Origin: Candidatus Heimdallarchaeota archaeon
GTDB taxonomy: Archaea > Asgardarchaeota > Heimdallarchaeia > JABLTI01
NCBI GenBank assembly: GCA_019058275.1
Contig: JAHLVW010000007.1
Coordinates: 1 to 15,227 of the forward strand
Direction: 5' to 3'
DNA length: 15,227 nt
Position 1 is the first letter of the stretch, and each line of letters begins with the position of its first letter. The position numbers were made by a program, and so were the translations under genes. Shown here piece after piece: positions 1 through 14,729 of this stretch. Under the pieces are notes generated by a model that did no database searches, had not been told where the DNA came from, and saw only the letters and a list, made by a program, of their open reading frames with translations.

Positions 1-1560
1 AAGAACAGTTGAGTGGGGGATTCCCGAGTCCATGTAGGGCACGGGGCTGGTTTGAGCTAAGCTCTTTATTTCTTGGTAGTCGATAAAGCTGGCTCGATAA
101 ATGTTGATTGCCGCGATGTAGTCTCGGTCTGCTATGAAGCCACATTCCGGGCAGTGGAAGAAGCGTCCTCGCTTTTCAGCAACAAGGTTGTTTGGTCCGA
201 GAACTTTTTGTCCTTTTGCTGAGCAACGGGGGCAGTGTGAGGAGGTGTTCCAGGGGCAGACTTTTTGCAAGAGAATTCCTGCTTCTTTTCTCTTGTATTC
301 TAGCAGGTTTGCTATTCTTCCTCTGAGCCACTGGCTTAATCTTCTTGACCAGCTTTTTCTTCCTTTTGGCGGTTTATAGTTTCTGAGGTCTTCTATGACA
401 ATTTTAGTACAGGACCACATTTGAGCAATTTTTATGAGGATGTTTGTTGTGGTGTGAGCGAGTTCTTCTCCAAGACGATTACGTTTTGCATAGAGCTTAC
501 TTCTTTCTTCCTCTTTTCGCACTACTCCTCTTTGGTTGCTTTCTCGTCTCTTCTTTTGCTTTGCTAGTTGTCTTTGAATCTCTGCTATGTGGTTGTAGAG
601 TCGCTCGATATGACGGTAATTTGAGCCTTTAAGGTTGATGAAAATGGGTTTTGATATTTGTTTTCCATCCTCGCAGATGACTATTGTTGCTACTTTTTTC
701 AACCCGAGATCCACTGCTAGTGCTCGACCATTCCCTTCCTTTCTTATTGTTCTTGGGCACTCCCATGGGAACTGGAGAAAGAAATAGTTGAGACCACCTT
801 TTAGTGTTCTTTTTGTCAAGGTTGGTTTAAGTGGTTGGAGTGACCGTGCTCGGGTTATTTTTTCTTTTATTTTCTCTGGGATGACGAGTTCGCTCTGCAC
901 CCACTCCCAGTCACTTTTGCTTTTTGGTTCTGAACAAGTTGGTAGCTTCATTCGTAGGTGGATGGTTTCACCATCAGAGTTGTATTGTATTGCTTGTCCG
1001 TCATCAGGTCCGAAAGGAAAAGCGTATTTGTTTATTTCTGGTTTCACAATGTCTGTGTAGGAGAACAAGTCAAAAACGTTATTTTGTCGTTGTTGCCATT
1101 TAAGTATCATTGCTATTGTTTGTTCGACCATGACTTTTTTATACTTGGGATAAGTTTTTCCGTTTTTAGAAATGGTTCTACAATGTTGCATCACAACAGA
1201 TAGAAGTTTGTTTTCATTTGTTTCTGGTCCTAACCAGTTGATTATTTCCAAGCAGTTATAGAAACATTGGTAGCGCTTGTATTGTCCCCTGATTATCCTT
1301 CCGATCCATTCTGTTGCTCCTCTACGTACTCTAGAGGGAAAGTATATCCCTTCTAAGGATATTTGTGCTTCGTTGATCACTTTATATGCTTTTAGTTCAC
1401 TTGTTCCTAGTTTTGTTATCGATTCTTCTAACCAAATTTCTTCTAGTAGTTTCTTTGCTGTTTTTGTTGTTAATTCTAGGAACCAAGTTAATCGCTCATC
1501 TGTCGGCAATTTGAATTGGTAGCTTTTGGTTGGGACTTTCTTTTTTCGAGGAGGAACCAT
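1..1560 (-). CDS. tnpB: TnpB/Cas12f-like RNA-guided RuvC endonuclease (IS200/IS605 family), 3'-partial, >520 aa
   Basis: Hand translation from ATG at 1560 (MVPPRKKKVPTKSYQFKLP...) stays open for 520 codons to the window edge. It is absent from the ORF track because there is no stop in the window. Motifs: RuvC-I ALAVDLGLKK (D284), RuvC-II KIVIEDLRNY (E390), Zn finger NTSSHCPRC...FFHCPECG, RuvC-III ADRDYIAAINI (D480). Confidence 0.93.
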   Translation of the reverse strand, partial: MVPPRKKKVPTKSYQFKLPTDERLTWFLELTTKTAKKLLEEIWLEESITKLGTSELKAYKVINEAQISLEGIYFPSRVRRGATEWIGRIIRGQYKRYQCFYNCLEIINWLGPETNENKLLSVVMQHCRTISKNGKTYPKYKKVMVEQTIAMILKWQQRQNNVFDLFSYTDIVKPEINKYAFPFGPDDGQAIQYNSDGETIHLRMKLPTCSEPKSKSDWEWVQSELVIPEKIKEKITRARSLQPLKPTLTKRTLKGGLNYFFLQFPWECPRTIRKEGNGRALAVDLGLKKVATIVICEDGKQISKPIFINLKGSNYRHIERLYNHIAEIQRQLAKQKKRRESNQRGVVRKEEERSKLYAKRNRLGEELAHTTTNILIKIAQMWSCTKIVIEDLRNYKPPKGRKSWSRRLSQWLRGRIANLLEYKRKEAGILLQKVCPWNTSSHCPRCSAKGQKVLGPNNLVAEKRGRFFHCPECGFIADRDYIAAINIYRASFIDYQEIKSLAQTSPVPYMDSGIPHSTVL

Positions 1561-1590
1561 TTTTCTTCAATAAAATATAAATATAGCTCA

Positions 1591-1606
1591 TTATATTTAA
1601 TTTTCA
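1591..1606 (-). promoter_or_regulatory. Putative archaeal BRE/TATA promoter of tnpB
   Basis: The minus strand reads TGAAAA-TTAAATATAA about 30-45 nt upstream of the tnpB ATG and has no obvious RBS, consistent with a leaderless or short-leader transcript. The AT-rich context lowers specificity. Confidence 0.35.
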
Positions 1607-1643
1607 TAAAGAGTTAGCTGAAAGTATTATCGTTTCTTTCAAA

Positions 1644-1667
1644 GAATAGTTAATTGATTAGCTATTC
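1644..1667. repeat. Near-perfect 24-bp palindrome in the divergent intergenic region
   Basis: GAATAGTTAAT-TG-ATTAGCTATTC: 10 of 11 arm positions are Watson-Crick complementary and the other is a G-T pair. Confidence 0.8.
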
Positions 1668-1729
1668 GAACAGTTGTACAAAGAGGTATTTAAGAAAGCA
1701 AAAAAGAATAATCTATTAGGAGAATTACT

Positions 1730-3355
1730 ATGCAAGAGTTTCTTAATTGGCAAACAGATCCACTGCTGGTTGATCCTGAACCACTAGCACAAAACACTTG
1801 GTTAACAGCGAATAATCTACTGGAAAGCAATCAATCAGAGAAGATCTTTACAGCTAATAATCAGTTTAATTTGTATTCAATTATGATTCGTAAAAATGAT
1901 TTTGTTACAGGCGAACGAATCATCCAATCATTTCCCTACATTATCCTGGATCAAGAATTGATAACAAAAATTAGAAAACATTCTCTTGCTCTTGCAGAAA
2001 AGACATATAACTATTTTCAAAAATCACATTACACTCGATCTATTCGTGATTGGCAAAAAAAGATCATAGCTTATCTTGAAAAGCAACAACGTCTTCCGTT
2101 CCCACTTTTCCGGTTGGTTCCATCATATGAAAAATTCTTTCAAGAAAAACAAACGGTTAATTTTCAATCCGCTAGAGGTGAGGACTTTCAATTACCTCTT
2201 TATCTTACAGAAAACCTTGCTTATCTTACAGGAGTGGTCATAGGAGATGGTCACCTTGCAGACTACTTTATCAATATTATCGATAGCTCAAAAGTGCACA
2301 TAGAAAATTTAACTCGATTATTAGAAGAATTGTTCAAGTCCAAAACAGAGTTTTTCGAGCAACCAAATGCCAATGCTTGGAATGTGAACATTCTTGGCAA
2401 ATGGGTCGTTCGATTCTTTAATTTCCTTTCTTCACAACCTATTGCTGCTCGAAAGTATCTTGCTTTACGTGAACCACTTATTTTCCAAAGTAATGATCTT
2501 TTCCGGAGTTTGTTTTGGCGTGGTTTGATGGATGCCGATGGAAGTTACAAAAGGGTAATTGGGGTTGCTTCTGCATCGAAACGATTACGGTCAGATTTCG
2601 CCACTTTCTTAACTCAACATCAAATTGATTATCGTTTCTATGAACAAGAAGTATGTGGAGGTTTAACATATAGTTTAAATGTCGCTGGGCAATCACGAAA
2701 ACAATTTGCAAAGTTAATTGGTTCGAATCATCCAGATAAACAACAAGAGCTTCAATCTTTGTTATCTCGCAAAGTTTATCGTTTTTCCCGTCGAATTCAT
2801 ACTGTGCGAAAAATCGGAACATGGCATGGACAGGTTATAGGTTTTAAACATGGAAAACTTGCTAGTGGTTATTTTGACTTTTCTAATTTCCCTATAAATA
2901 TAGTTAATAAAGGAAAGTATATTCGTAAATTACGTCTTTCTAATGAACATACTCAAGCTGAATTAGCAGAGAAATTAAACATAGCACAAGGTATGCTTTC
3001 CAAATACGAATCAAACACTATCTCTATTCCAATCCATACTTTCTTAGTTTTATTACAACAATATCATTTATCTATGGAAAATCTATTATCAGAATATTCT
3101 ATATTGACTTTCCAATTAAGTAAATCTAGTTGTTGTTTTCCGGTAAAACCGAAGAAAAAATTACTAAACCTTATGGCAGGTTTACAATTCAAGGATAATG
3201 GTTATTTCTATATAATAGGGGGATTAAACATTTCATTAGAGGAGTATAAACAAGCTCTAAGCAATTATTTCTTAATCACAATTCCATCCTCTATGAAATT
3301 CTATAATGCTGTTCTCAGAGCATTTTACAAGGAATTCTTTGTTTTAAGAGATTAA
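1730..3355 (+). CDS. Free-standing LAGLIDADG (DOD-type) homing endonuclease-like protein with XRE/Cro-C1 HTH
   Basis: Two LAGLIDADG helices, LAYLTGVVIGDG (D173) and FWRGLMDADG (D270). XRE HTH at ~aa 395-453 (GKYIRKLRLSNEHTQAELAEKLNIAQGMLSKYESN). AGGAGA RBS at 1718-1723. No Hint/intein splicing motifs seen. Confidence 0.85.
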   Translation: MQEFLNWQTDPLLVDPEPLAQNTWLTANNLLESNQSEKIFTANNQFNLYSIMIRKNDFVTGERIIQSFPYIILDQELITKIRKHSLALAEKTYNYFQKSHYTRSIRDWQKKIIAYLEKQQRLPFPLFRLVPSYEKFFQEKQTVNFQSARGEDFQLPLYLTENLAYLTGVVIGDGHLADYFINIIDSSKVHIENLTRLLEELFKSKTEFFEQPNANAWNVNILGKWVVRFFNFLSSQPIAARKYLALREPLIFQSNDLFRSLFWRGLMDADGSYKRVIGVASASKRLRSDFATFLTQHQIDYRFYEQEVCGGLTYSLNVAGQSRKQFAKLIGSNHPDKQQELQSLLSRKVYRFSRRIHTVRKIGTWHGQVIGFKHGKLASGYFDFSNFPINIVNKGKYIRKLRLSNEHTQAELAEKLNIAQGMLSKYESNTISIPIHTFLVLLQQYHLSMENLLSEYSILTFQLSKSSCCFPVKPKKKLLNLMAGLQFKDNGYFYIIGGLNISLEEYKQALSNYFLITIPSSMKFYNAVLRAFYKEFFVLRD

Positions 3356-3388
3356 TGGTTTTGATTCAAAAGAAAAATAACTCAATAG

Positions 3389-3459
3389 CTCACGCTTTGG
3401 GGTGTGCTCGCATCGACGCTACTCATCGCTTACAGCGATTCAAAACGCGTCAGAGTGAG
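3389..3459. other. GC-rich nested inverted-repeat element (possible structured RNA or ssDNA hairpin)
   Basis: Nested complementary pairs CTCAC(3389-3393)/GTGAG(3455-3459), GACGC(3415-3419)/GCGTC(3447-3451) and ATCGCT(3425-3430)/AGCGAT(3434-3439), set in an otherwise AT-rich intergenic region. Confidence 0.45.
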
Positions 3460-3536
3460 AAACCATTGAATTTTTTATCAAAATATACAAGCATGAGGAA
3501 AACAGTTAATCAAAAAGGAATGTCTTTTTTTTCGCT

Positions 3537-3554
3537 GTTTATATAGTTTATATA
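3537..3554 (+). promoter_or_regulatory. Tandem TATA-like boxes upstream of the Cas1-fusion gene
   Basis: Direct tandem repeat GTTTATATA-GTTTATATA about 100 nt upstream of the start. GGAGA RBS at 3645-3649 precedes ATG 3656. Confidence 0.4.
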
Positions 3555-3652
3555 CTTTTGTCGGTATTTTTTTAGCTCTTTTTAAAGAAAACTCAACAAA
3601 TAAAATTAGAGGTCAAAACTGAGTTGATTATAACTCTTTTCCATGGAGAAAT

Positions 3653-6600
3653 TTGATGAGCACCAGTATTTATCCCAAAAAACGCTTACCAAACAGTGTT
3701 TCACTTGGAATTACTAATCAATTAGCTGAAAATGAGTCTCTTTACGATCATATGTTTAGCTCATTCTCGAAAGAAAAACAAGAAGCAATACTATTCAAAA
3801 CGAATCATATGGCTTTTGTTTGCAGGAATGAAGGAAAAACCAGGACCAAGAAAAATGAATTGATCGTTTTCCTCGCAGTTCGTCGTGCGCTTGCTATGAA
3901 GAATCATACAAAACTACCTGTTTATCTAGTTGTTAAGTCAAAGCATGTGGGAAAACAAGTAGCAGTAGAATTAGCTAGGCACTCAACAGATTACAAACTC
4001 TATAATATGATCACATCATTAAGGAATAAGCTCAACAAAGAATTGCTTGAGAAAACCCGTACGGAAGCGGATTTCATTCTAATAACCTACCATAAACTTC
4101 GAGAGCTTGTTTTTTTAAGGGCTAATCCATCAACAGAACATATTGTCTTTGTGAATCCATTAACAACAAAAAATGGTTATAAAGAAGTCATTGCTATGGA
4201 TGATATCATAGGGGGATTGCATAGACACAAGTATCGAAAACCTCATTTCACCTTTCTCATCGATACTAATTCATTTCCTATCATGCAAAAAAAAGATTAT
4301 CAATACCTCTTAAATGTTGAAGAATGCCTTTTTTTCGGTTGTAAAGAAACACCCATGAGTAGTTTCAACAACAAACTAAGAAATACTTTAGAGCACCTTA
4401 ATGATGAGCACATACAGTTCTCTATTTTACGGGAGCTCTTCCGAAGAAAAAGCCTTCTTGATGGGTTAGATCAACGGTTCAAAGAGTCAATTACTTACAA
4501 ATTACATTTATTCAGCAATAATATCTACCCACAATACATTGAACAAAAGGATAATTTCTTCACAGAAGAAGTAATAAGTCGAAAAACTAAAATTGATAAA
4601 AAAATTTATGGAAAATTATCCCAAACACTCACTCTTTTCAATAAGAAAAAAACAACAATGACAATTATCGGAAAAAAACTAGTCGAGATTTTCGACCAAG
4701 AAAAGACAAAATACTCCTGGGAGGATCCAATTGAAACGCCACCGTTCCTACCCTTAATTGAGAAGAATCAAGACAAAAAATACGCTCTAACTAGTTTAGG
4801 TTTAGCATTACTAATTGGCACTTCAAATTTTTCCGGTGTGAAAATTGGCTTAACAGCTTTTTTGTTCTACGTGGCAAACATTCTTTACAGGAATAAGCGT
4901 TTCCCAGTCAAGCTTACTATTGGAGAAATCGTTAATTGTTACTCTAAGCTTATTGGTGCGGATCCAATTTACTTACCAACTGCTATCAAAGAATTTTCAG
5001 TCACAGAGACCATTCAGTCAGAAGAAGAGAAGGAGGAGTTGATCAAATCATTCAATTACTTTATTGAGCGAGAATTTGGGTACATAATGAATGATTACAC
5101 AAGTTATGCTGCACTAACTCTTCTAGGCGCTTTTGAAGAGCTTATGGATGAAAATGCTTTATACTTTTACGAACGATTAAAGGATTTCAAGGAGAAAAAG
5201 GAGCAAAAAAGAGAGTTTAACTTAACAGAAGCAATCTTCAATACGGTGAAAAACAAACCACTAATGATCAGAGAAGTAAGCCAAAAAGTCAAGGTGGAGT
5301 ACAAAGTAGCAAGTAAAGAGCTAAAGAAATTGGAAACGCAAGGACAAATCACTTCTATCAAAACGGTACTGAATGATGGTTTTGAACGTTTGAAGTACTG
5401 CCAACCGGAAGTATTGGAGCTGTTTCCATACCTCAAAAAGACTTGCGGCATTTGCGCTATATACAAAAGAAGGTTTCAGAATTGCCCTTTATTAGAACTC
5501 TTAGCGATTTTTAACACAACTAATTTCCCTATGGAGTATATCGGTTATATTTGTAATATTATCAAAGAATACGCTACAGCGTGCGAACACATAGTTGAAT
5601 ATACTGATTTGGAAGTTGAAGGAGAAAAAATCAGGTACACAAAAACCAAAGAAGATCTTGAACAAAAGAGAAGGGTTGTCAATGGCTCCTATCTTCTAGG
5701 ACAAGAAGTACAAACAAAGTATCTCTGTGCAACTTGTGAAGATGTGATAGAAGAATTCGGTACAGGAGAAGAGATCTTCTTTCCGCGAAGAAGAATTCTT
5801 TGCCCAAATTGCTCAACAGGTTACTACCTAAAAGATGATGGACGCATATTGATCCAGACAGAGCACAGAGATATTCTTCGTCAAAAATATTATGAGGTCG
5901 CAGGGTCGATACCAAAAATACTCAAAGAAGCGGAACCATCGTATGCTTACGTGATCTATGATCAGGTGCATGCAAACGTGGTGATACTCGAGGATGGTTC
6001 ATTAGTTCTTGAAATTTGTGATCACAGAGTTCCCTTGGAAAAAATCCAGTATATTTACTTTGCAGGACAAGAACACAAAGAACTTGAAGGATTTCTAAAA
6101 AAGCTTCTTGAAGTCAGACCGGATAGATTCAAATATACGATCAATAGGTCCCAACAAAAAGAAGAAGAGGATATAGAATTACGGGAAGGATGCGAACCAT
6201 TTACTTCAGAGCAGTATCAGGGTTTGCACAAATTTGTTGGTATAACATCCGAGGAAGAGCTTTGTAACAGCACTTTTCTGAAAGCAAGACAATTATCGAA
6301 TATAGGTGCCTTATTAAAGCATCAAAAAACTCTCCAAGAGAAAAATAAATACTCGACCAAGGTAAACAAGCAATTAAAAGAAATGTTCGATCTCTTGTTG
6401 ATCGTTCAAACAGGGATAAACTCAAGCTATTATGGCCGTCAACTTGAAGGGTTAAGCCAGAATTGTCTTTTTGATTTGATAAAAGAAGTGGGAGGAAAAG
6501 CAGGTCTTTGGACCCACGGAAGAGTTATTTCTCGACTTGTTAAAGACATATTCCTTTCTTCTACAATGAAGATCAGTAATGCTCGAGCACCACTGGATGC

Positions 6601-7477
6601 GCTGCTAAATCAAATATTTCGTCAATTCCGCTTTAAGGTCAACAAAGTGTTCCGAAAAATCGGCTGGGAACCATCCTCATTAGGACCTGGCTTGATCCAT
6701 AAAAGAAAAACAAAATCAGATATTGACCGGAAAGGATTCTACTTTGATATTATTGAGCCTGTTGGCTCATTAGCACTGATGACCTTACTTAATGCACTTA
6801 CTGATGGGTTGTTCTCTGATGCAGATTGCTCATTAGAATTAGATGGTAGTGGTCAAGAAATTTATCGAGTGAAAAACTCATCCATTGAGAAAATCGAGCT
6901 ACTAGTTGATGAAGCACTAGCAGAGCATGTGTTTTACAAAGGAGTAGGGGTGCCTTTTCTAGAAGCTTTTGAAGAAAATTTACTAAAACTCAGGCAAGCA
7001 GTCGAACTCTGGTTCCAAATAAGTGATGATGGAAAAGAACCAACCAGTGAGACGATCAGCCAATGCATGAATGCTGCTGATTATTTCCCCCTTGCTTTTT
7101 GCCCTGATGGTTGCGAAGAGGAGCTAACTATAATCAACAATTTCACAAAAAAATATTCATGCTTTTTTGAAGGTCGAGAAAAACAAGTCTTAGCTGCGAA
7201 GAAGAAACGTCAATTTTTCAGAATAAAAGCAAAGAAGAAATGGCTCATAAGCAACGGGAAAAGAGGAAAAGAAAAATTACAACTAACGAAACATCAAGCA
7301 AAAGAACATGAAAGAAGTTTGCTAGTAGTGTTAGTAATGCTCCAGCTTGGTTTTCATATGAATGGTTTCTTTGGTTATTACTCAACAAACCATATCAGAG
7401 AATTGCTACTATTAACTCAAAACCAAGCACAAAGAATCCTTACCAAAATGGTTACTCAAGGATTATTACTGAAATAG
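3653..7477 (+). CDS. cas1: Giant multidomain protein with diverged Cas1 integrase domain (degenerate SF2 RecA domain - wHTH - Cys clusters - Cas1 - wHTH)
   Basis: Cas1-like N-terminal beta domain YAYVIYD...VVILEDGSLVLEICDHRVPLEKIQYIYFAG (from aa 764). Helical domain GRQLEG (E932), APLDALLNQIF...IGWEP..LGPGLIH (H1016), GFYFDIIEP (D1032/E1035), FYKG...YFPLAF, in canonical Cas1 order. The likely start is ATG 3656. The frame continues past TAG 7475-7477 to 7783. Confidence 0.8.
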   Translation: MMSTSIYPKKRLPNSVSLGITNQLAENESLYDHMFSSFSKEKQEAILFKTNHMAFVCRNEGKTRTKKNELIVFLAVRRALAMKNHTKLPVYLVVKSKHVGKQVAVELARHSTDYKLYNMITSLRNKLNKELLEKTRTEADFILITYHKLRELVFLRANPSTEHIVFVNPLTTKNGYKEVIAMDDIIGGLHRHKYRKPHFTFLIDTNSFPIMQKKDYQYLLNVEECLFFGCKETPMSSFNNKLRNTLEHLNDEHIQFSILRELFRRKSLLDGLDQRFKESITYKLHLFSNNIYPQYIEQKDNFFTEEVISRKTKIDKKIYGKLSQTLTLFNKKKTTMTIIGKKLVEIFDQEKTKYSWEDPIETPPFLPLIEKNQDKKYALTSLGLALLIGTSNFSGVKIGLTAFLFYVANILYRNKRFPVKLTIGEIVNCYSKLIGADPIYLPTAIKEFSVTETIQSEEEKEELIKSFNYFIEREFGYIMNDYTSYAALTLLGAFEELMDENALYFYERLKDFKEKKEQKREFNLTEAIFNTVKNKPLMIREVSQKVKVEYKVASKELKKLETQGQITSIKTVLNDGFERLKYCQPEVLELFPYLKKTCGICAIYKRRFQNCPLLELLAIFNTTNFPMEYIGYICNIIKEYATACEHIVEYTDLEVEGEKIRYTKTKEDLEQKRRVVNGSYLLGQEVQTKYLCATCEDVIEEFGTGEEIFFPRRRILCPNCSTGYYLKDDGRILIQTEHRDILRQKYYEVAGSIPKILKEAEPSYAYVIYDQVHANVVILEDGSLVLEICDHRVPLEKIQYIYFAGQEHKELEGFLKKLLEVRPDRFKYTINRSQQKEEEDIELREGCEPFTSEQYQGLHKFVGITSEEELCNSTFLKARQLSNIGALLKHQKTLQEKNKYSTKVNKQLKEMFDLLLIVQTGINSSYYGRQLEGLSQNCLFDLIKEVGGKAGLWTHGRVISRLVKDIFLSSTMKISNARAPLDALLNQIFRQFRFKVNKVFRKIGWEPSSLGPGLIHKRKTKSDIDRKGFYFDIIEPVGSLALMTLLNALTDGLFSDADCSLELDGSGQEIYRVKNSSIEKIELLVDEALAEHVFYKGVGVPFLEAFEENLLKLRQAVELWFQISDDGKEPTSETISQCMNAADYFPLAFCPDGCEEELTIINNFTKKYSCFFEGREKQVLAAKKKRQFFRIKAKKKWLISNGKRGKEKLQLTKHQAKEHERSLLVVLVMLQLGFHMNGFFGYYSTNHIRELLLLTQNQAQRILTKMVTQGLLLK

Positions 7478-7783
7478 AAATATAGGAATCGCAGTTTCTA
7501 TCAACTGAATCTTGAGAGCGAAACAGTACATGAACTACTCTTTTCTTTTGAGCAAATTCCATGTGATGATTCGGATAAAAGAATCGAATTGATGGAAAAT
7601 TCAAGCAATGTTCTCGAAAGGATTGATTCTCTCTTAATGAAAATCCAACAAACCAAAGAGGGACTCCGAGTAACTACTGGTTGGAAAGGATGGAAGATAT
7701 CAGATAATATTGAGCCCATCATAGAACTAGTTGAGGAGAAATTAGCTATTAGTACAGAGCTATTAAGGAGGAAGTTTCAATGA
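7478..7783 (+). CDS. In-frame continuation of the Cas1-fusion ORF after a single TAG (probable C-terminal 101 aa; includes the 64-aa ORF 7589-7783)
   Basis: Same frame as 3653 and open for 101 codons after the TAG. It completes the wHTH wing (GLLLK*KYRNRSFYQLN) and ends in a TGA that overlaps the helicase ATG (ATGA, 7780-7783). Confidence 0.6.
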   Translation, partial: KYRNRSFYQLNLESETVHELLFSFEQIPCDDSDKRIELMENSSNVLERIDSLLMKIQQTKEGLRVTTGWKGWKISDNIEPIIELVEEKLAISTELLRRKFQ

Positions 7784-10700
7784 TTCTCAAAAAAGAAGAA
7801 GCAAACTTTAGCTCTCTCATTGTAGAGAAGTTCCCGATAAAAACAAGAACCAAACCTGAATGGCTAAAAATAGCTAAACTACCTGCAACGAAACCTGTTA
7901 CTTCTAATAATGTCTCTTGGAAGGATATTCTCCCAAAAGAAGCAGAAGCATTTACTGCTGTTCTAGAGACGATGATAAGTAGCTCTCATCCCTTTGAACA
8001 CCAAAGAGAAGCTCTCGAGTATTTACTAAATCCAAAGGATGAAAAAAAGGATCTAATAATTAATGGCGGAACTTATTCCGGTAAGTCATTGTCATTCACT
8101 GCCCCTGGAGTTGCTAAATTGTTGACAGGAGAGATTGACTTTATGGTGCTGTTCTACCCATCAAAACAATTGTTAATGGACCAATTTGAACAAGTGAAAA
8201 AAATGGTCGTTGAATTAGAGAAACGAATGGGAGTGCGATTAACAACTCGAATGTACAGCGGTGATGTTGGCAAGAGTTTAACACCAGGAAAAACAACTCA
8301 AAAAAGGGATCTTAATGATACAGAAAAACACCCACCAAACATACTCTTAGCCACTTTCGATAAGGTCTGGTTCCAGCAGCTAAATGGGAACAGTAGTCCT
8401 TTACATGAGAAAATAATGGATTGCCAGTATTTAGTCTTCGATGAAATACATGCATTTGATGGTTTTGCTGCTGCCATCATTAAGATGTTTATCCAAACAC
8501 ACAAACTAAGGAATCCTGCTTGTCAAACGATTCTTTCATCAGCAACAATAGATAGAGTGACAGAATTTCGAGATGCGTTTTTGCCAGGAGCAAAAGTTAT
8601 CACTTGCCCACCTGTTAGGGGTGAACAAGAATTCCTTGGCACAACAAGAAGGCATACCATTCCTATTCTGGTTAACCTCTGGGAAGAATTAGCGAAAATG
8701 CCAGGAAAAACATGTCTGATTTTTGCAGACTCGAAAGAAGACATAGAATTGTTGGCTGAACGGTTGTGTGCTGCCCTTAAAAAGAAGAATGAATTTTTTG
8801 ATGAAAACACAATTGCAGTAATTCATGCTGATTTGCCTTATATTCAGAGAAAAAAAGTGCTGGATGAATTACAAAAGGGAGAACGAAACATTATCCGCAT
8901 AGTGATCTCCTCTTCTGTCCTTGAGTTAGGAGTAAATATCTCAAACTTCCAAACAGTAATGAATATTGGTATACCCATTACAGGTAAGGATGGCGTTGTT
9001 CAAAGAATGGCTCGAAATCGCTCGAAACCAGGAGAACGAAGAGTGAATGTTTTCCTATTCGATTTAGCAAATGCTCGAGATAAATTCTACTGGGAACACA
9101 AGGAAATACTTCGAAAGATCCTTGAAACAAATGCTTGTAATCCCATTCTTTTCCCAAAAAGAAATGCAAAGGTTTTTGCAGGAATAATTATTTTGCTGGT
9201 CCAATATGGAATAACTTCTTTCGAAGAAATAATGAATTTCTTCCTTCAAGAAGGAAAAGTTGTTCATGAATTGGCCAGACAACAATATGTAAGACTAGTG
9301 ACCCAAATGATTCTGAAAAAAGAAAAAGGGAAACTATTATTCACTAGTAAAGGTGAAGAGCTCCTCCTAGAAAAGAAAGAGCTTGTTCCTTTCTCAATAC
9401 GAGCAATTGATCGTGGTTGGACAATAGACCAGCTGCAAGGAGTAGACTCGAACAGCTTGAATGAGAGGACGAGAGAAATCGGGAAAATAACTACAAGAGA
9501 TGTTTTAAGGAAAGGTTTCCCTGGGAACATTTTAACGAGAAACAAACAGAAATATCTTGTAGTAGGTATTGACCAAAGGATGAGAAGTGTTCTGGTTAAA
9601 AGGTATTTAATTAACCAAGGTGAGGAAATCAAAAGACTACCAATGAATCAATTATCTGACCCGAGCATTACGGTGGGGATTCTGCCAAAAATATCTGAAG
9701 GCCCTGAATTACTAGGCATTAATTTTGGCCAGCTTATTATTGAACGTAAACCTAAAGCAATAGTCAATGCTAGTCCAGACAGGATGATAAAAATAGCAGC
9801 AAATGGCAATAATACTAATTACTTTTGCTGGCAGGAATTAACTGAGGATGAAGTACAAGAGTGCAGTATCAGAGAGAAAGTAGAAGGAATAAGTTTAAGC
9901 TTAAAAACGGAAATGCTGAAAGAAAGCAAAGGAAGATCAAACAATCAAATCCTAAAACTATTTGGTAAAATACTCCTCATTGAAACGGAAGCAGTATTAG
10001 GAATTCCTGCTTCAGAGTTGGGGCAGATAAGTAACAATAAACAATTAGCAATAGTAGATAAGGGGAAAGGTAAGGGGAATGCTGGCTATTTGTACAAGCA
10101 TTTGAAAGAAGTAGCAGTGGATCTAAGAAAGAGATTGGCTAGGTGTTCATGTGCAGAAGGGTGCAAAGCTTGCTATGGAGAAGTAATTGGTGTATTACCA
10201 AAAGGCACGAAAGATAAATTAGTCTTTTTAGCGCAAGACTTGGAAAAGATAATCGAAACGAATTTACAAGAAAAACTTGAAGAACAATTAACCATACAGC
10301 CAAACTATCATGAAGGAAAGATCGTTGCTCTCTCAGACATTCACTTGACAAGTGAGTTTAGCTTTGAAGAAGAATTCTATGAAGCAATAAGCTCCCTTAG
10401 CAAACAAGCGGATATAATAATCATTAATGGTGATTTGCTGGATAAGGGAGGAACTGAAGGAGTTGAAGCAGTTAAGAAATTGCTACAAAAAGCGATCAAA
10501 GAAGGTTTCTGGTCAAAACTAGTACTTGTGCGAAGCTCGACTATACATGATGCTGCGTTAGCAAATTTTGGAAACATAATGCAACAAGACTATGCCTGGA
10601 TAGAAACAGCAGCTGGAGAAGTGCTATTTGTCCATGGAAATAAAATTGGTATTGATCCGAAAGTTGTTGCAGAAAGAAAAGCTAAAGGAGCAACGATAGA

Positions 10701-10947
10701 AGCAAAATGGGGATTAATAGACGAAGGCAGAAGGCGGTTGCCAAAAATTACCAAAGAAACTCACCTTGTGATAGGTCATTTGCACGAACGTTTCTTTGAC
10801 GAAGAGAACAGGGTTTATGGCTTGGGTCACTGGACAAGGAAAGGAAATGAATATCATCAGAAATGTCTGATGATTATTAACACTGATGATGCTTTAGATA
10901 CCCTTAAACTAAGAACTTTTACAAGTGATGTTCTTTCTTCTCTTTAA
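7780..10947 (+). CDS. YprA/Hrq1/SftH-like DEAH-box helicase with DUF1998 Zn motif, fused to a C-terminal calcineurin-like metallophosphoesterase
   Basis: Helicase motifs: Q PFEHQREAL, I GGTYSGKS (aa 96), Ia FYPSKQLLMDQ, YSGD, Ib LATFDKV, II DEIH (aa 221), III SAT, IV LIFADS, V SSVLELGVNI, VI-like QRMARNR. DUF1998-like D.GKGKG...CSCAEGCKAC (aa 789-798). Phosphoesterase motifs SDIH, NGDLLD, IHD, VHGN, GHLH (aa 848-1055). Confidence 0.88.
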   Translation: MILKKEEANFSSLIVEKFPIKTRTKPEWLKIAKLPATKPVTSNNVSWKDILPKEAEAFTAVLETMISSSHPFEHQREALEYLLNPKDEKKDLIINGGTYSGKSLSFTAPGVAKLLTGEIDFMVLFYPSKQLLMDQFEQVKKMVVELEKRMGVRLTTRMYSGDVGKSLTPGKTTQKRDLNDTEKHPPNILLATFDKVWFQQLNGNSSPLHEKIMDCQYLVFDEIHAFDGFAAAIIKMFIQTHKLRNPACQTILSSATIDRVTEFRDAFLPGAKVITCPPVRGEQEFLGTTRRHTIPILVNLWEELAKMPGKTCLIFADSKEDIELLAERLCAALKKKNEFFDENTIAVIHADLPYIQRKKVLDELQKGERNIIRIVISSSVLELGVNISNFQTVMNIGIPITGKDGVVQRMARNRSKPGERRVNVFLFDLANARDKFYWEHKEILRKILETNACNPILFPKRNAKVFAGIIILLVQYGITSFEEIMNFFLQEGKVVHELARQQYVRLVTQMILKKEKGKLLFTSKGEELLLEKKELVPFSIRAIDRGWTIDQLQGVDSNSLNERTREIGKITTRDVLRKGFPGNILTRNKQKYLVVGIDQRMRSVLVKRYLINQGEEIKRLPMNQLSDPSITVGILPKISEGPELLGINFGQLIIERKPKAIVNASPDRMIKIAANGNNTNYFCWQELTEDEVQECSIREKVEGISLSLKTEMLKESKGRSNNQILKLFGKILLIETEAVLGIPASELGQISNNKQLAIVDKGKGKGNAGYLYKHLKEVAVDLRKRLARCSCAEGCKACYGEVIGVLPKGTKDKLVFLAQDLEKIIETNLQEKLEEQLTIQPNYHEGKIVALSDIHLTSEFSFEEEFYEAISSLSKQADIIIINGDLLDKGGTEGVEAVKKLLQKAIKEGFWSKLVLVRSSTIHDAALANFGNIMQQDYAWIETAAGEVLFVHGNKIGIDPKVVAERKAKGATIEAKWGLIDEGRRRLPKITKETHLVIGHLHERFFDEENRVYGLGHWTRKGNEYHQKCLMIINTDDALDTLKLRTFTSDVLSSL

Positions 10948-11180
10948 GAGAAATTTCTTCTGATAATTGTTCAACAAATACAATGAGTTTCTCTTCTCAA
11001 ACTATTCTTCAAATGTTTTTTTACCTTGTCATAATTGTCTATAAAAAGAAGCAACGGTTCAACCCTCTGTTCTTCTCTTAAAAGCTTCTGAACAAAAGAC
11101 AATCCAAATAACTTTGTCAGTCAATTCAATTAAGGTAACATCAAATATCTTCATTTTTTATTGTAATTTATTTCCTCAAG

Positions 11181-12648: not shown

Positions 12649-13446
12649 GTGACTGATGAAACAAAAATAGAAGGAAATCTTGTAGAAATATTTAGCTCCT
12701 ACCAAGGTGAAGGAGGATCTGTTAGAGGTTCGACTTTTGGCAGAAGACAGATTTTCATCAGATTTGCTGGGTGCGATTTGAAATGCCTTTGGTGTGATAC
12801 AGCCAAATCAAGAGATCCCAATTATCCTGAATGTAAAGTAGAAAAAGTACCTGGCTCATGGGAATTTATCACATACAAGAATCCTGTAGACGAGGAATTT
12901 ATCATTGAACAAATTCTTAATCTTTCCACCAAAGATTTTCACTCTGTTTCTCTTACAGGTGGAGAACCTACATATCAAGAGGAGTTTTTTTATCAGATGG
13001 TAAATCGCTTGTATGATCTCGAGATTCCTATCTTTTTAGAGACAAATGGTTATTTCCCTAAAAGAATAGAAAAAGTAGCCTCACTTATTAGCTATGCTTG
13101 TGTTGATATTAAGGATCGTAGTGCTAAAAGCATTAAGAGTAGTGAATGGGAAAAGCTCGTAGAAAAGGAGCTGGAATCAATTGTAATTTTAAATAATCAT
13201 CCTGTGAAGGTTTACGCTAAATTAGTAGTGACTGAAGACACTTCTCTTGAGGATGTCCGAATGTATGCTGACAAGCTAAGAGAAATAGTTGTTCCTTTAG
13301 TCATTCAACCAGTCACTCCAGTTGGAGGAGTAAAGCCAATATCACATCATAAGCTGTTTAAAATCACTGAAACAATTGCAGAAGTTCTTCCTACAGACCT
13401 ATATGGAATATCAATACAAAGTCATAAACTTTTATCCATTTTATGA
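12649..13446 (+). CDS. queE: 7-carboxy-7-deazaguanine synthase (radical SAM)
   Basis: EIFSSYQGEG, IRFAGCDLKCLWCDT (CxxxCxxC), SLTGGEP, LETNG, C-terminal QSHK. GTG start with GGTGA RBS. Adjacent to queC. Confidence 0.93.
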   Translation: MTDETKIEGNLVEIFSSYQGEGGSVRGSTFGRRQIFIRFAGCDLKCLWCDTAKSRDPNYPECKVEKVPGSWEFITYKNPVDEEFIIEQILNLSTKDFHSVSLTGGEPTYQEEFFYQMVNRLYDLEIPIFLETNGYFPKRIEKVASLISYACVDIKDRSAKSIKSSEWEKLVEKELESIVILNNHPVKVYAKLVVTEDTSLEDVRMYADKLREIVVPLVIQPVTPVGGVKPISHHKLFKITETIAEVLPTDLYGISIQSHKLLSIL

Positions 13447-13534
13447 GAATTTTACAATATTTTCTTCCAAAGAATTAAATATTGATTGTGGATTATGGAA
13501 TAGAAAAGTCTAGATAATTTTAAGTGTGATTATA

Positions 13535-14729
13535 ATGTCCTCTAAAGTTTATTTTGGTTCTTTACAGCCATGGTAAAGGTAATCGTTTTGCTTCACTTGG
13601 AGCTAAATATGAAGAAATTCTTGAAAAACTTGATTTCTCTTCTATTAAGAAGAAAGATAAAGTTGCAATTAAAATGCACCTTGGATTCAATGATGGCTAT
13701 TAAACGATTCCTGTTTTCTTTATAAGAAAACTAGTTGAAGCCGTCAAGAAAACAGGTGGTTATCCTTTCATTACCGATACCCCTACAGCAGTTTACAATG
13801 CAGCAAGTAGAGGTTATACTGAAGAAACATGTGGTTGTACTATAATCCCTGTTGCAGGTGTTAAAGATGGTTACAAATACTCTAAAGAAGTTAATTTCAA
13901 GGGTGTAGATTCTATAGATATGGCTGGAGTCTTACACGATGCAGATGTTTTAATTAACTTTGCTCATACAAAAGGTCACGGTTTATATGGCTACGGTGGT
14001 GTTATAAAGAACATTGCTCTTGGTGGATTTGCTGCCAAAACACGATGGAATAAAATCCATGGTGTTGTTCATTATGATAAATACTGGGATGCTGATAAAT
14101 GCACACCAGAACATACTAAAAAACCAGTCGATTCTTGTCCTGTTAAAGCAATTAACTACAAAGAAGATAAACATGAGCTCAGAGTAGCTTTCTATAACTG
14201 TAATCAGTGTATGGAATGCATAAAGGCTGATGAAGGCGTTGGTTGTTTAGAGATTAAACAAGAGAATTTGGATGCTTTCCAAGAATTCATGGCAATTGTA
14301 GCAAAACAAGTTTTTGACACTTTTGATAAGAAGAAAATCTTCAACATAAACATTGCATTACAGATTACTATTTTCTGTGACTGTATGGGTATGCCACAAC
14401 CAATTATTACTAATGAGATTGGTATTCTTGCAAGTAAAGATACTGTAGCTATTGAACAAGCACCCCTAGATTTAATCAAAAAAGAAGGTATTCTTGAGTC
14501 AAGTATTCATCCATATCTGAAAAACGTTCAATTAGATCCCAAATTAGATTTACATCCATTTCAAAGACTCTTAGGACCTATGAAAGATCCCTACAAAGTG
14601 GTTGAATATGCTGAAAAATTAGAAATGGGAACATCGAAGTATGAATTAATCGAGATACTTTCTCCTGAAGAAACAGCTAAAATGGAACCACCTAAAGAAC
14701 GATATGAAACTGAACCAACATTTTTCTGA
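13535..14729 (+). pseudogene. DUF362-family Fe-S protein, disrupted by a +1 frameshift and an in-frame stop
   Basis: ATG 13535 gives MSSKVYFGSLQ, then an extra C at 13568/13569. The shifted frame reads HGKGNRF...DKVAIKMHLGFNDGY*TIPVFF (TAA 13701-13703) and continues in frame with ORF 13920-14729 (HTKGH..YGGVIKNIALG, CPVKAI...CNQCMEC, CDC, ILASKDTVAIEQA). Confidence 0.8.

Follow-up and report, generated by a model that had tools for sequence, protein, structure and literature searches.

Cas1 is known in two settings, CRISPR adaptation and casposons, and a survey of the Cas1 homologues of Asgard archaea was reportedly published by Makarova et al. in CRISPR J in 2020. The closest relatives of the locus analyzed here are the aCas1-TnpB loci (Cas1H-Asgard-1 and -2; Altae-Tran et al., PNAS 2023, PMC10691335, a study that builds on that survey), which, in the extract of the 2023 paper used here, are flanked by repeats, carry a diverged Cas1 in the place of TnpA, have a variable region past tnpB that precedes a conserved GTTCACTCA motif, and are proposed as transposons. 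Our locus lies in a stretch of 15,227 bp, hereafter the window, which is the whole of contig C50 of a Heimdallarchaeota genome (G000; 4.1 Mb, 118 contigs). Its two very large co-oriented genes, at 3653-7477 and 7780-10947, both of them present as a first-pass annotation of this DNA had reported, encode a giant protein with a Cas1-like domain and a helicase-phosphoesterase. We propose that this giant-helicase pair is probably the core of a transposon-like element of the Cas1 family, about 11.17 kb long and devoid of PolB, in Heimdallarchaeota.

The window shares with the aCas1-TnpB loci the features by which these are recognized, namely a highly diverged Cas1 adjoining tnpB in an Asgard host together with flanking repeats, and also the onset of variable sequence right after a conserved T. 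It differs from them in the Hel308-like fusion, the helicase-phosphoesterase partner, the ACC target and the existence of miniature copies, none of which is mentioned in the extract of PMC10691335. The GTTCACTCA motif was absent from the seven loci searched, and none was noticed in the flanks of tnpB copies, where no formal search was made. The novelty of the locus is thus lower than the first-pass annotation implied, as repeat-flanked Cas1-TnpB loci of Asgard archaea had, according to the same extract, already been proposed as transposons.

With casposons, in which a Cas1-solo group 2 casposase is accompanied by PolB, the element has in common a Cas1-fold integrase as the sole recombinase candidate, terminal inverted repeats, archaeal hosts, and the presence of a casposase (6opm, Z 18.7) among the top structural matches of its integrase. 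It departs from them in lacking PolB, in an apparent ACC duplication of ~3 bp compared to the 14-15 bp of casposon target-site duplications, in the fusion of Cas1 to a dead helicase, and in the addition of tnpB with an omegaRNA-like region, a LAGLIDADG-HTH gene and a helicase-nuclease. The likeness to the Cas1-Cas2 integrases of CRISPR systems consists of the two-domain Cas1 fold, the conserved E/H/D-E residues and a predicted dimer, whereas Cas2, array and leader are missing, the protein falls below the PF01867 threshold, and canonical Cas1 is encoded separately in G000.

Boundaries, copies and empty sites

The first-pass annotation described a two-gene system at 3653-10947, coordinates that leave out tnpB, the LAGLIDADG-HTH gene and the end of the element at 11061; the pair belongs instead, very probably, to a mobile unit of four genes bounded by inverted repeats. 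The true ends were identified by comparing the flanks of tnpB copies, nine of which share ...TTGTCCATAAAAAAAGGAAC GGT downstream of tnpB and then diverge completely. The left end lies on another contig, C73, which ends in the same 57 nt with which the window begins and holds the last ~20 codons of tnpB, the omegaRNA-like region and the left inverted repeat (C73:45330-45490). Together with window positions 58-11061 this segment makes up an element of 11,165 bp, and the copy at L007 measures 11,156 bp (L004, L005/L006 and L007 being homologous loci in three other Heimdallarchaeota assemblies). In both copies the ends are imperfect inverted repeats of ~25-30 nt, the left end on C73 (GTTCCTTTTTTCATGGACAATTAT...) being the inverted match of the right end (...TTGTCTATAAAAAGAAGCAACGGTTCA), which is situated 88-114 nt past the helicase stop in the window and starts ~28 nt past it in L007. 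The right inverted repeat follows the helicase gene in the window, in L007, in the copy divided between C27 and C101 and at C19, and the order of the four genes is enclosed by repeats in two genomes. ACC was found 5' of the left end in all copies and 3' of the right end in five of seven, and two empty-site comparisons and four filled sites revealed only ACC (3 bp) on both flanks.

Among the large open reading frames (ORFs) between the two ends, Pfam searches detected neither PolB nor any DDE, Y1 or serine transposase; because the element holds none of these transposases, the Cas1-like domain is the natural candidate for its transposase, in line with the proposal made for Asgard Cas1-TnpB loci (PMC10691335), a role that we consider an even prospect. 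The first-pass annotation was also right that CRISPR array, cas2 and polB are lacking: the repeat scan of the window found no array or long repeats, and the window ORFs include no cas2 or polB family in Pfam. Scans of the window for tRNAs and Rfam families gave nothing meaningful.

Evidence for mobility comes from copies that are filled in one genome and empty in another. G000 contains two miniature elements of 365 bp (C117:~50578-50938 and C45:~13188-13548), 96% identical and set in unrelated flanks, which are reduced to the two ends and the omegaRNA-like region, with no ORF, and whose stems covary with those of the window copy. Both sites are empty, with a single ACC(C), in the sister species G085. 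The segment comprising the left end and the omegaRNA-like region occurs at ~9 sites in G000 and at least 10 in G086. The inverted-repeat ends, the ACC flanks, the miniature copies and the empty sites favor the new mobile element among the three options that the first-pass annotation had offered.

The comparison with empty sites upstream of pyrE, which that annotation had also suggested, found three sister species (G085, G083 and G090) with a ~200-bp spacer between pyrE and a conserved 445-aa gene, the distance in G000 being at least 13 kb, occupied by the element plus ~1.9 kb with two small ORFs. The junctions of this 13-kb insertion with respect to G085 showed neither inverted repeats nor a duplication, because the insertion extends beyond the element by ~1.9 kb on the left (C73:43383-45326) and by ~140 bp on the right, and it was the tnpB flanks that gave the ends. 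The ~1.9-kb segment, located between the 445-aa gene and the left end, is specific to G000 and absent from G085, and its two ORFs encode 94 and 212 aa. Just upstream of the 445-aa gene, two further large indels distinguish G000 (C73:33449-40832, compared with L046) from G085, so that this is a variable region. In the sister species G087, G084 and G081 (L038, L039 and L041) an open frame of 428 aa contains pyrE, and the pyrE-upstream stretches examined did not reveal the 445-aa neighbor, which suggests a different upstream arrangement or a fusion.

The giant-protein family has a patchy distribution, being present in 12 of 400 genomes of the phylum and, within the genus, in 6 of the 10 other genomes. 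The two genes are consistently paired, as the first-pass annotation had proposed to check: the giant gene is followed directly by the helicase gene in L004, L005/L006 and L007, with 37-45% protein identity and unrelated flanks, in six loci of G000 (25-60% identity) and in the sister species. A minus-strand tnpB and a plus-strand LAGLIDADG-HTH gene precede the pair in L005, in L007 and in the second full G000 copy (C27/C101). The homologues of the window proteins carry Heimdallarchaeota names at NCBI. As a repeat family, the genes amount in G000 to ~20 LAGLIDADG-HTH paralogues, ~10 tnpB copies and ~10 helicase-phosphoesterase copies, and several contigs end inside such genes, the assembly being fragmented by the family.

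The Cas1-like fusion and its neighbors

Structure prediction supports a Cas1/casposase fold, with the catalytic residues kept, for residues 740-1200 of the giant protein. The AlphaFold2 (AF2) model of this region, built from a 16-sequence alignment, has a predicted local distance difference test score (pLDDT) of 83 and shows the N-terminal beta domain and C-terminal helical domain of Cas1. The model matched structures of this family only: its top 50 Foldseek matches were all Cas1 or casposase proteins (E down to 4e-9), and the VIA comparison with 4n06_A, the Cas1 of A. fulgidus, gave a Z of 20.2 (root-mean-square deviation 3.6, 269 aligned residues). Residues E932, H1016, D1032 and E1035 are invariant in the alignment of 16 homologues, and hhalign with intermediate sequences places them over the E/H/D/E of the canonical Cas1 of G000 (98.6%); fold and residues thus bear out the Cas1 fusion of the first-pass annotation. 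A profile search of 1.8 billion proteins returned only 41 relatives, the distant ones with marginal PF01867 matches. The Cas1-like domain was also predicted to form a homodimer with a score of 0.54 versus 0.00 for the best control (contact agreement between runs at least 94%, pLDDT at least 74); among solved structures, 20 of 30 homodimers and 1 of 23 monomers attained the mark for this assay, and since solved Cas1 dimers exist, the pass may reflect memorization by the predictor.

The PF01867 scan of the whole G000 genome produced matches at C26 and C76, the canonical Cas1 genes located apart from the giant gene, and at C48, the giant gene not being among them. The C48 match is marginal and concerns a 623-aa ORF, in the region C48:25616-30328, a few kb from a LAGLIDADG-HTH paralogue, which may be a smaller related Cas1 element.

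Residues 1-745 were modeled with a pLDDT of 75, and the top Foldseek matches of this part were Hel308/Hjm proteins of the Ski2 type over ~720 columns (E 6e-5). The Walker A and DExH positions are not conserved across the alignments of the giant-protein family, in which VNPL is conserved at the DExH position, and on the model this region is a dead helicase scaffold, that is, a predicted pseudo-helicase. Two zinc ribbons are formed by C598/C601/C611/C644 and C692/C695/C717/C720, and the matches of the C-terminus to winged helices are weak.

The helicase-phosphoesterase architecture claimed for the second gene holds, with DEAD, Helicase_C, MZB and Metallophos all passing the Pfam gathering cut-offs. 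The protein comprises a superfamily 2 (SF2) DEXH helicase at residues 73-412, an MZB/DUF1998 zinc domain at 737-798 and a C-terminal metallophosphoesterase from 847 to ~1040. Helicase motifs I, II, III and VI are intact (GTYSGKS, DEIH, SAT and QRMARNRS), and phosphoesterase motifs I, II, IV and V are canonical (DIH, GD, HGN and GHLH). The combination of DEAD, Helicase_C and MZB/DUF1998 with intact ATPase motifs is that of MrfA/YprA-like helicases, and the likeness to MrfA/YprA and Lhr-MPE extends to the binuclear metallophosphoesterase-type nuclease, which is fused here and separate in paralogues; the window gene differs from those systems in lying inside a mobile element, in its translational coupling to a Cas1 fusion and in reaching no NCBIfam equivalog threshold. 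Its nearest named families in NCBIfam and PADLOC, all far under their cut-offs, are Lhr-like and YprA/MrfA-like helicases, SngC, BrxH/BrxHI and Cas3. The analogies to DISARM, Dpd and Druantia drawn in the first-pass annotation did not survive: they come down to generic SF2 similarity, as the weak partial PADLOC matches to DruE and DpdJ cover generic helicase motifs alone, and Pfam detected none of the partner genes (DrmB/C, DpdA-C, DruA-D) in the window.

In diverged paralogues of G000 a gene of its own encodes the phosphoesterase, and three or four genes take the place of the giant one. At C52:1-9810, C33:92925-102722 and C84:117-13074, three to five smaller genes (~185, 500, 700 and 200-260 aa) replace the giant gene ahead of a separate helicase gene, which is followed by a separate phosphoesterase gene at C33 and C84, while C52 runs off the contig at that point. 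These split-gene paralogues may be the unfused ancestral form. In G122, from another Asgard family, a helicase-MZB gene and a phosphoesterase gene are grouped with the gene for a protein of 1247 aa that matches Cas1 marginally.

The tnpB product matches Pfam OrfB_IS605 and Cas12f1-like_TNB and scores 110 bits against NCBIfam guided_TnpB (cut-off 100). The conserved region at its 3' end terminates in ...GGAAC, then GGT, after which the variable flank begins, and its stems covary between copies; this omegaRNA-like region, which stops at the element boundary, is on sequence grounds a candidate guide RNA. A TnpB above the NCBIfam cut-off with a structured 3' guide-RNA-like region, here known from DNA, that stops exactly at the boundary, and a variable flank beyond it, are the marks of IS200/IS605 elements. 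The differences from these are the lack of a Y1 or serine TnpA, the inverted-repeat ends with an apparent duplication, and a size of ~11 kb with three extra genes.

The LAGLIDADG-HTH gene, divergent from tnpB, encodes a WhiA/homing-endonuclease-like protein with a double LAGLIDADG domain and HTH_3, and its Atlas neighbors are LAGLIDADG proteins. It adjoins a full-length tnpB at six of the seven longer tnpB matches of G000 (C19 is the exception), as well as in L005 and L007. Between this gene and the giant gene lies a spacer whose DNA sequence is conserved in five copies that encode proteins of only 37-60% identity. The spacer contains a hairpin (3425-3439) of the form stem-TTACA-stem with a covarying stem (ATCGC/GCGAT, CCAC/GTGG, CCAT/ATGG), and a promoter-like, TATA-like block (3508-3587; AATCAAAAAGGAA..GTTTATATAG..CTTTTTAAAG). 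This block recurs in G000 within the spacer C27:10822-11136 and at C33:~3301 and C105:~40006, and at C33 and C105 it stands ahead of unrelated genes or of none.

Downstream of the element, pyrE and queC/queE are kept together in relatives that lack it. The queC/queE neighbors are an ordinary flank, because they are present beside pyrE in those element-free relatives; a tie of queC/queE to a Dpd-like system was ruled out on the same ground. The coordinates of all features are collected in Table 1.

Table 1. Features of the element and its flank in the window (contig C50 of G000).
Feature	Position	Strand	Basis or remark
tnpB-like ORF	1-1560	-	first 520 codons; runs off the left window edge
LAGLIDADG_3 + HTH_3 gene	1730-3355	+	Pfam
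Conserved spacer, ~300 nt	3356-3652	+	alignment of five copies
Giant protein ORF, 1274 aa	3653-7477	+	ends at TAG 7475-7477; frame open to 7783
Hel308/Ski2-like SF2 fold, residues 1-745	3653-5887	+	model; includes winged-helix parts and two Cys4 zinc ribbons
Cas1-like two-domain integrase fold, residues ~762-1160	5936-7132	+	model, structure matches, E932/H1016/D1032/E1035
C-terminal winged-helix region and tail	7133-7783	+	broken by TAG 7475-7477; intact form ends at TGA 7781-7783
Helicase-phosphoesterase ORF, 1055 aa	7780-10947	+	Pfam
Right terminal inverted repeat and element end	11035-11061	+	TTGTCTATAAAAAGAAGCAACGGTTCA; inverted match of the left end
ACC, apparent 3-bp target duplication	11062-11064	+	ACC also at C73:45327-45329, directly 5' of the left end
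pyrE-like phosphoribosyltransferase, queC, queE-like radical-SAM and DUF362 genes	from 11284	+	Pfam; downstream flank

Counterevidence and alternative explanations

Several observations weigh against a Cas1-driven transposon. The Cas1 assignment fails all sequence-family thresholds, including the curated cut-off of PF01867: the giant protein has no match in Pfam Cas1 (searched whole and in four pieces, E<=10), NCBIfam, PADLOC or PDB sequence profiles, and hhalign gave no significant alignment when only the two canonical Cas1 proteins were used. L005, with the same four genes, shows no detectable ends of the window type. The ACC duplication could alternatively be a target ACC next to an ACC borne by the element, and a duplication of 3 bp is unlike casposon or CRISPR integration and typical of DDE transposases, so that another enzyme could move the element in trans. 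Full-length copies within one genome are only 26-60% identical, with no sign of recent full-length transposition; by sequence divergence these copies look old, recent activity being apparent for the near-identical miniature copies alone. Motif III of the phosphoesterase departs from the canonical form, reading SSTIHD instead of GNHD. Finally, relatives of the giant protein adjoin RAMP genes, a hint of a defence role for the wider family.

This last point leads to an explanation that we regard as unlikely, though it is the best placed of the alternatives, in which the giant Cas1 protein and the helicase-phosphoesterase are a defence or DNA-capture module derived from the ARAMP type, with Cas1 capturing or processing foreign DNA, and ride as cargo on an element moved by other means. 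The relatives in question belong to G307, from a third family, where ~1325-aa proteins with a strong DEAD/Helicase_C N-terminus and a Cas1-like C-terminus occur in three or four copies in the one genome (L063, L064 and L065), each directly followed by a RAMP-superfamily gene and a second gene of ~268 aa. This layout of an active helicase-Cas1 fusion recalls ARAMP, systems that have a distinct Cas1 (PMC8730458), and the window protein resembles it in its size of ~1300 aa and in combining an SF2 helicase fold at the N-terminus with a Cas1-like domain at the C-terminus. It differs from the G307 proteins in that its helicase motifs are lost, no RAMP gene is present and the helicase-phosphoesterase is separate, a comparison which suggests that a separate helicase is supplied where the fused one has died. 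Helicase-nuclease pairs are common in defence, there are weak PADLOC matches to SngC, BrxHI and Cas3, and the numerous diverged paralogues in each genome would suit diversifying defence genes. However, RAMP, array and effector genes are all lacking from the unit, the giant protein fits none of the PADLOC system models, repeats enclose the four genes, in their order, in two genomes, and the ends have moved even though the element offers no other transposase candidate.

Somewhat less probable still, and concerning this copy only, is that the window locus is a decayed remnant with no present function, which would be compatible with a transposon-like element for the family as a whole. The giant ORF is interrupted by a TAG, after which 101 further codons remain open to the TGA that overlaps the helicase ATG at 7780. 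The ATGA overlap noted in the first-pass annotation accordingly exists in the extended frame, which the 99%-identical protein of another assembly supports, but is absent unless the TAG is read through. That protein (P0003) carries Gln where the window has the TAG and continues to residue 1376, and full-length homologues, of 1355-1392 aa, all align past the TAG, with V, M, E or K in this column. To judge from these alignments the extended frame is the ancestral form of the gene, and the TAG is a single strain-specific CAG-to-TAG change or an assembly error with no recoding, because the 99%-identical strain has CAG and a 1376-aa protein. Pyrrolysine was considered as a reading of the TAG and discarded, given that no PylS above the cut-off was found in G000, that TAG is a common stop there, ending 22% of the long ORFs, and that the sister strain has CAG. 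The window copy, in which the TAG removes the last 101 residues of the Cas1 protein, may therefore be defective, and the altered phosphoesterase motif III points in the same direction. Against decay stand a single lesion in more than 11 kb, the continued conservation of the codons past the TAG, the intact state of the remaining ORFs and helicase motifs, and the possibility that the TAG is an assembly error.

Least credible is that the mobile unit comprises only tnpB and its RNA, perhaps with the LAGLIDADG-HTH gene, moved in trans beside a giant-helicase pair that is a chromosomal repair operon like bacterial Lhr-MPE or MrfAB: helicase-metallophosphoesterase operons do act in bacterial repair, the top NCBIfam match of the helicase is a ligase-associated DEXH helicase (far under its cut-off), the LAGLIDADG-HTH gene with its promoter block also stands ahead of unrelated genes at C33 and C105, and tnpB 3' fragments with the left end stand alone at C5, C53 and C78, but in the window, in L007, in the C27/C101 copy and at C19 the right repeat comes after the helicase gene and not after the LAGLIDADG-HTH gene, and the pair is multi-copy, has flanks that differ between genomes, and is missing in most of the phylum's genomes and in ~4 of the 10 other genomes of the genus.

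Proposed mechanism and implications

As a transposon-like element, the unit would read, from left to right, left repeat with omegaRNA-like region, tnpB on the minus strand, LAGLIDADG-HTH gene, 1376-aa Cas1 fusion, helicase-phosphoesterase and right repeat. Cleavage of the element ends and their joining to ACC(C) targets, with a stagger of ~3 bp, would be the work of dimers of the Cas1-like domain, while the dead helicase scaffold, the zinc ribbons and the winged helices would bind the ends or the target. The helicase-phosphoesterase would unwind and trim DNA ends or intermediates, providing in trans the helicase activity that related fusions keep in cis. TnpB, with a guide taken from the flank beside the left end, may cleave emptied sites and so promote retention, as in IS200/IS605 elements, and the LAGLIDADG-HTH protein may regulate the conserved promoter block or add site recognition. 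Tentatively, these features could define a distinct class of Cas1-driven transposon, characterized by the absence of a polymerase, integration at ACC(C) with a short stagger of ~3 bp, the fusion of Cas1 to a dead Hel308-like scaffold, an obligatory helicase-metallophosphoesterase partner that processes the ends, and TnpB/omegaRNA-guided retention.

If this holds, it would be a third setting for Cas1, one in which the ends and the target are defined and the miniature copies offer ready-made substrates, so that a very diverged Cas1 could be put directly to biochemical test. Such a setting would reveal how the geometry of the integrase can change from a stagger of 14-37 bp to one of ~3 bp and what a helicase-nuclease partner contributes, with a bearing on how CRISPR adaptation arose from mobile elements and on the spread of TnpB with transposases other than TnpA; the elements are also a possible source of compact integration tools. 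A distinct class, taken with the RAMP-linked relatives whose helicase is active, would be a record of Cas1 passing repeatedly between mobile elements and CRISPR-like defence in those archaea that are the nearest to eukaryotes. Within the genus, these elements are a major repeat family that breaks assemblies and causes presence/absence differences between sister species.

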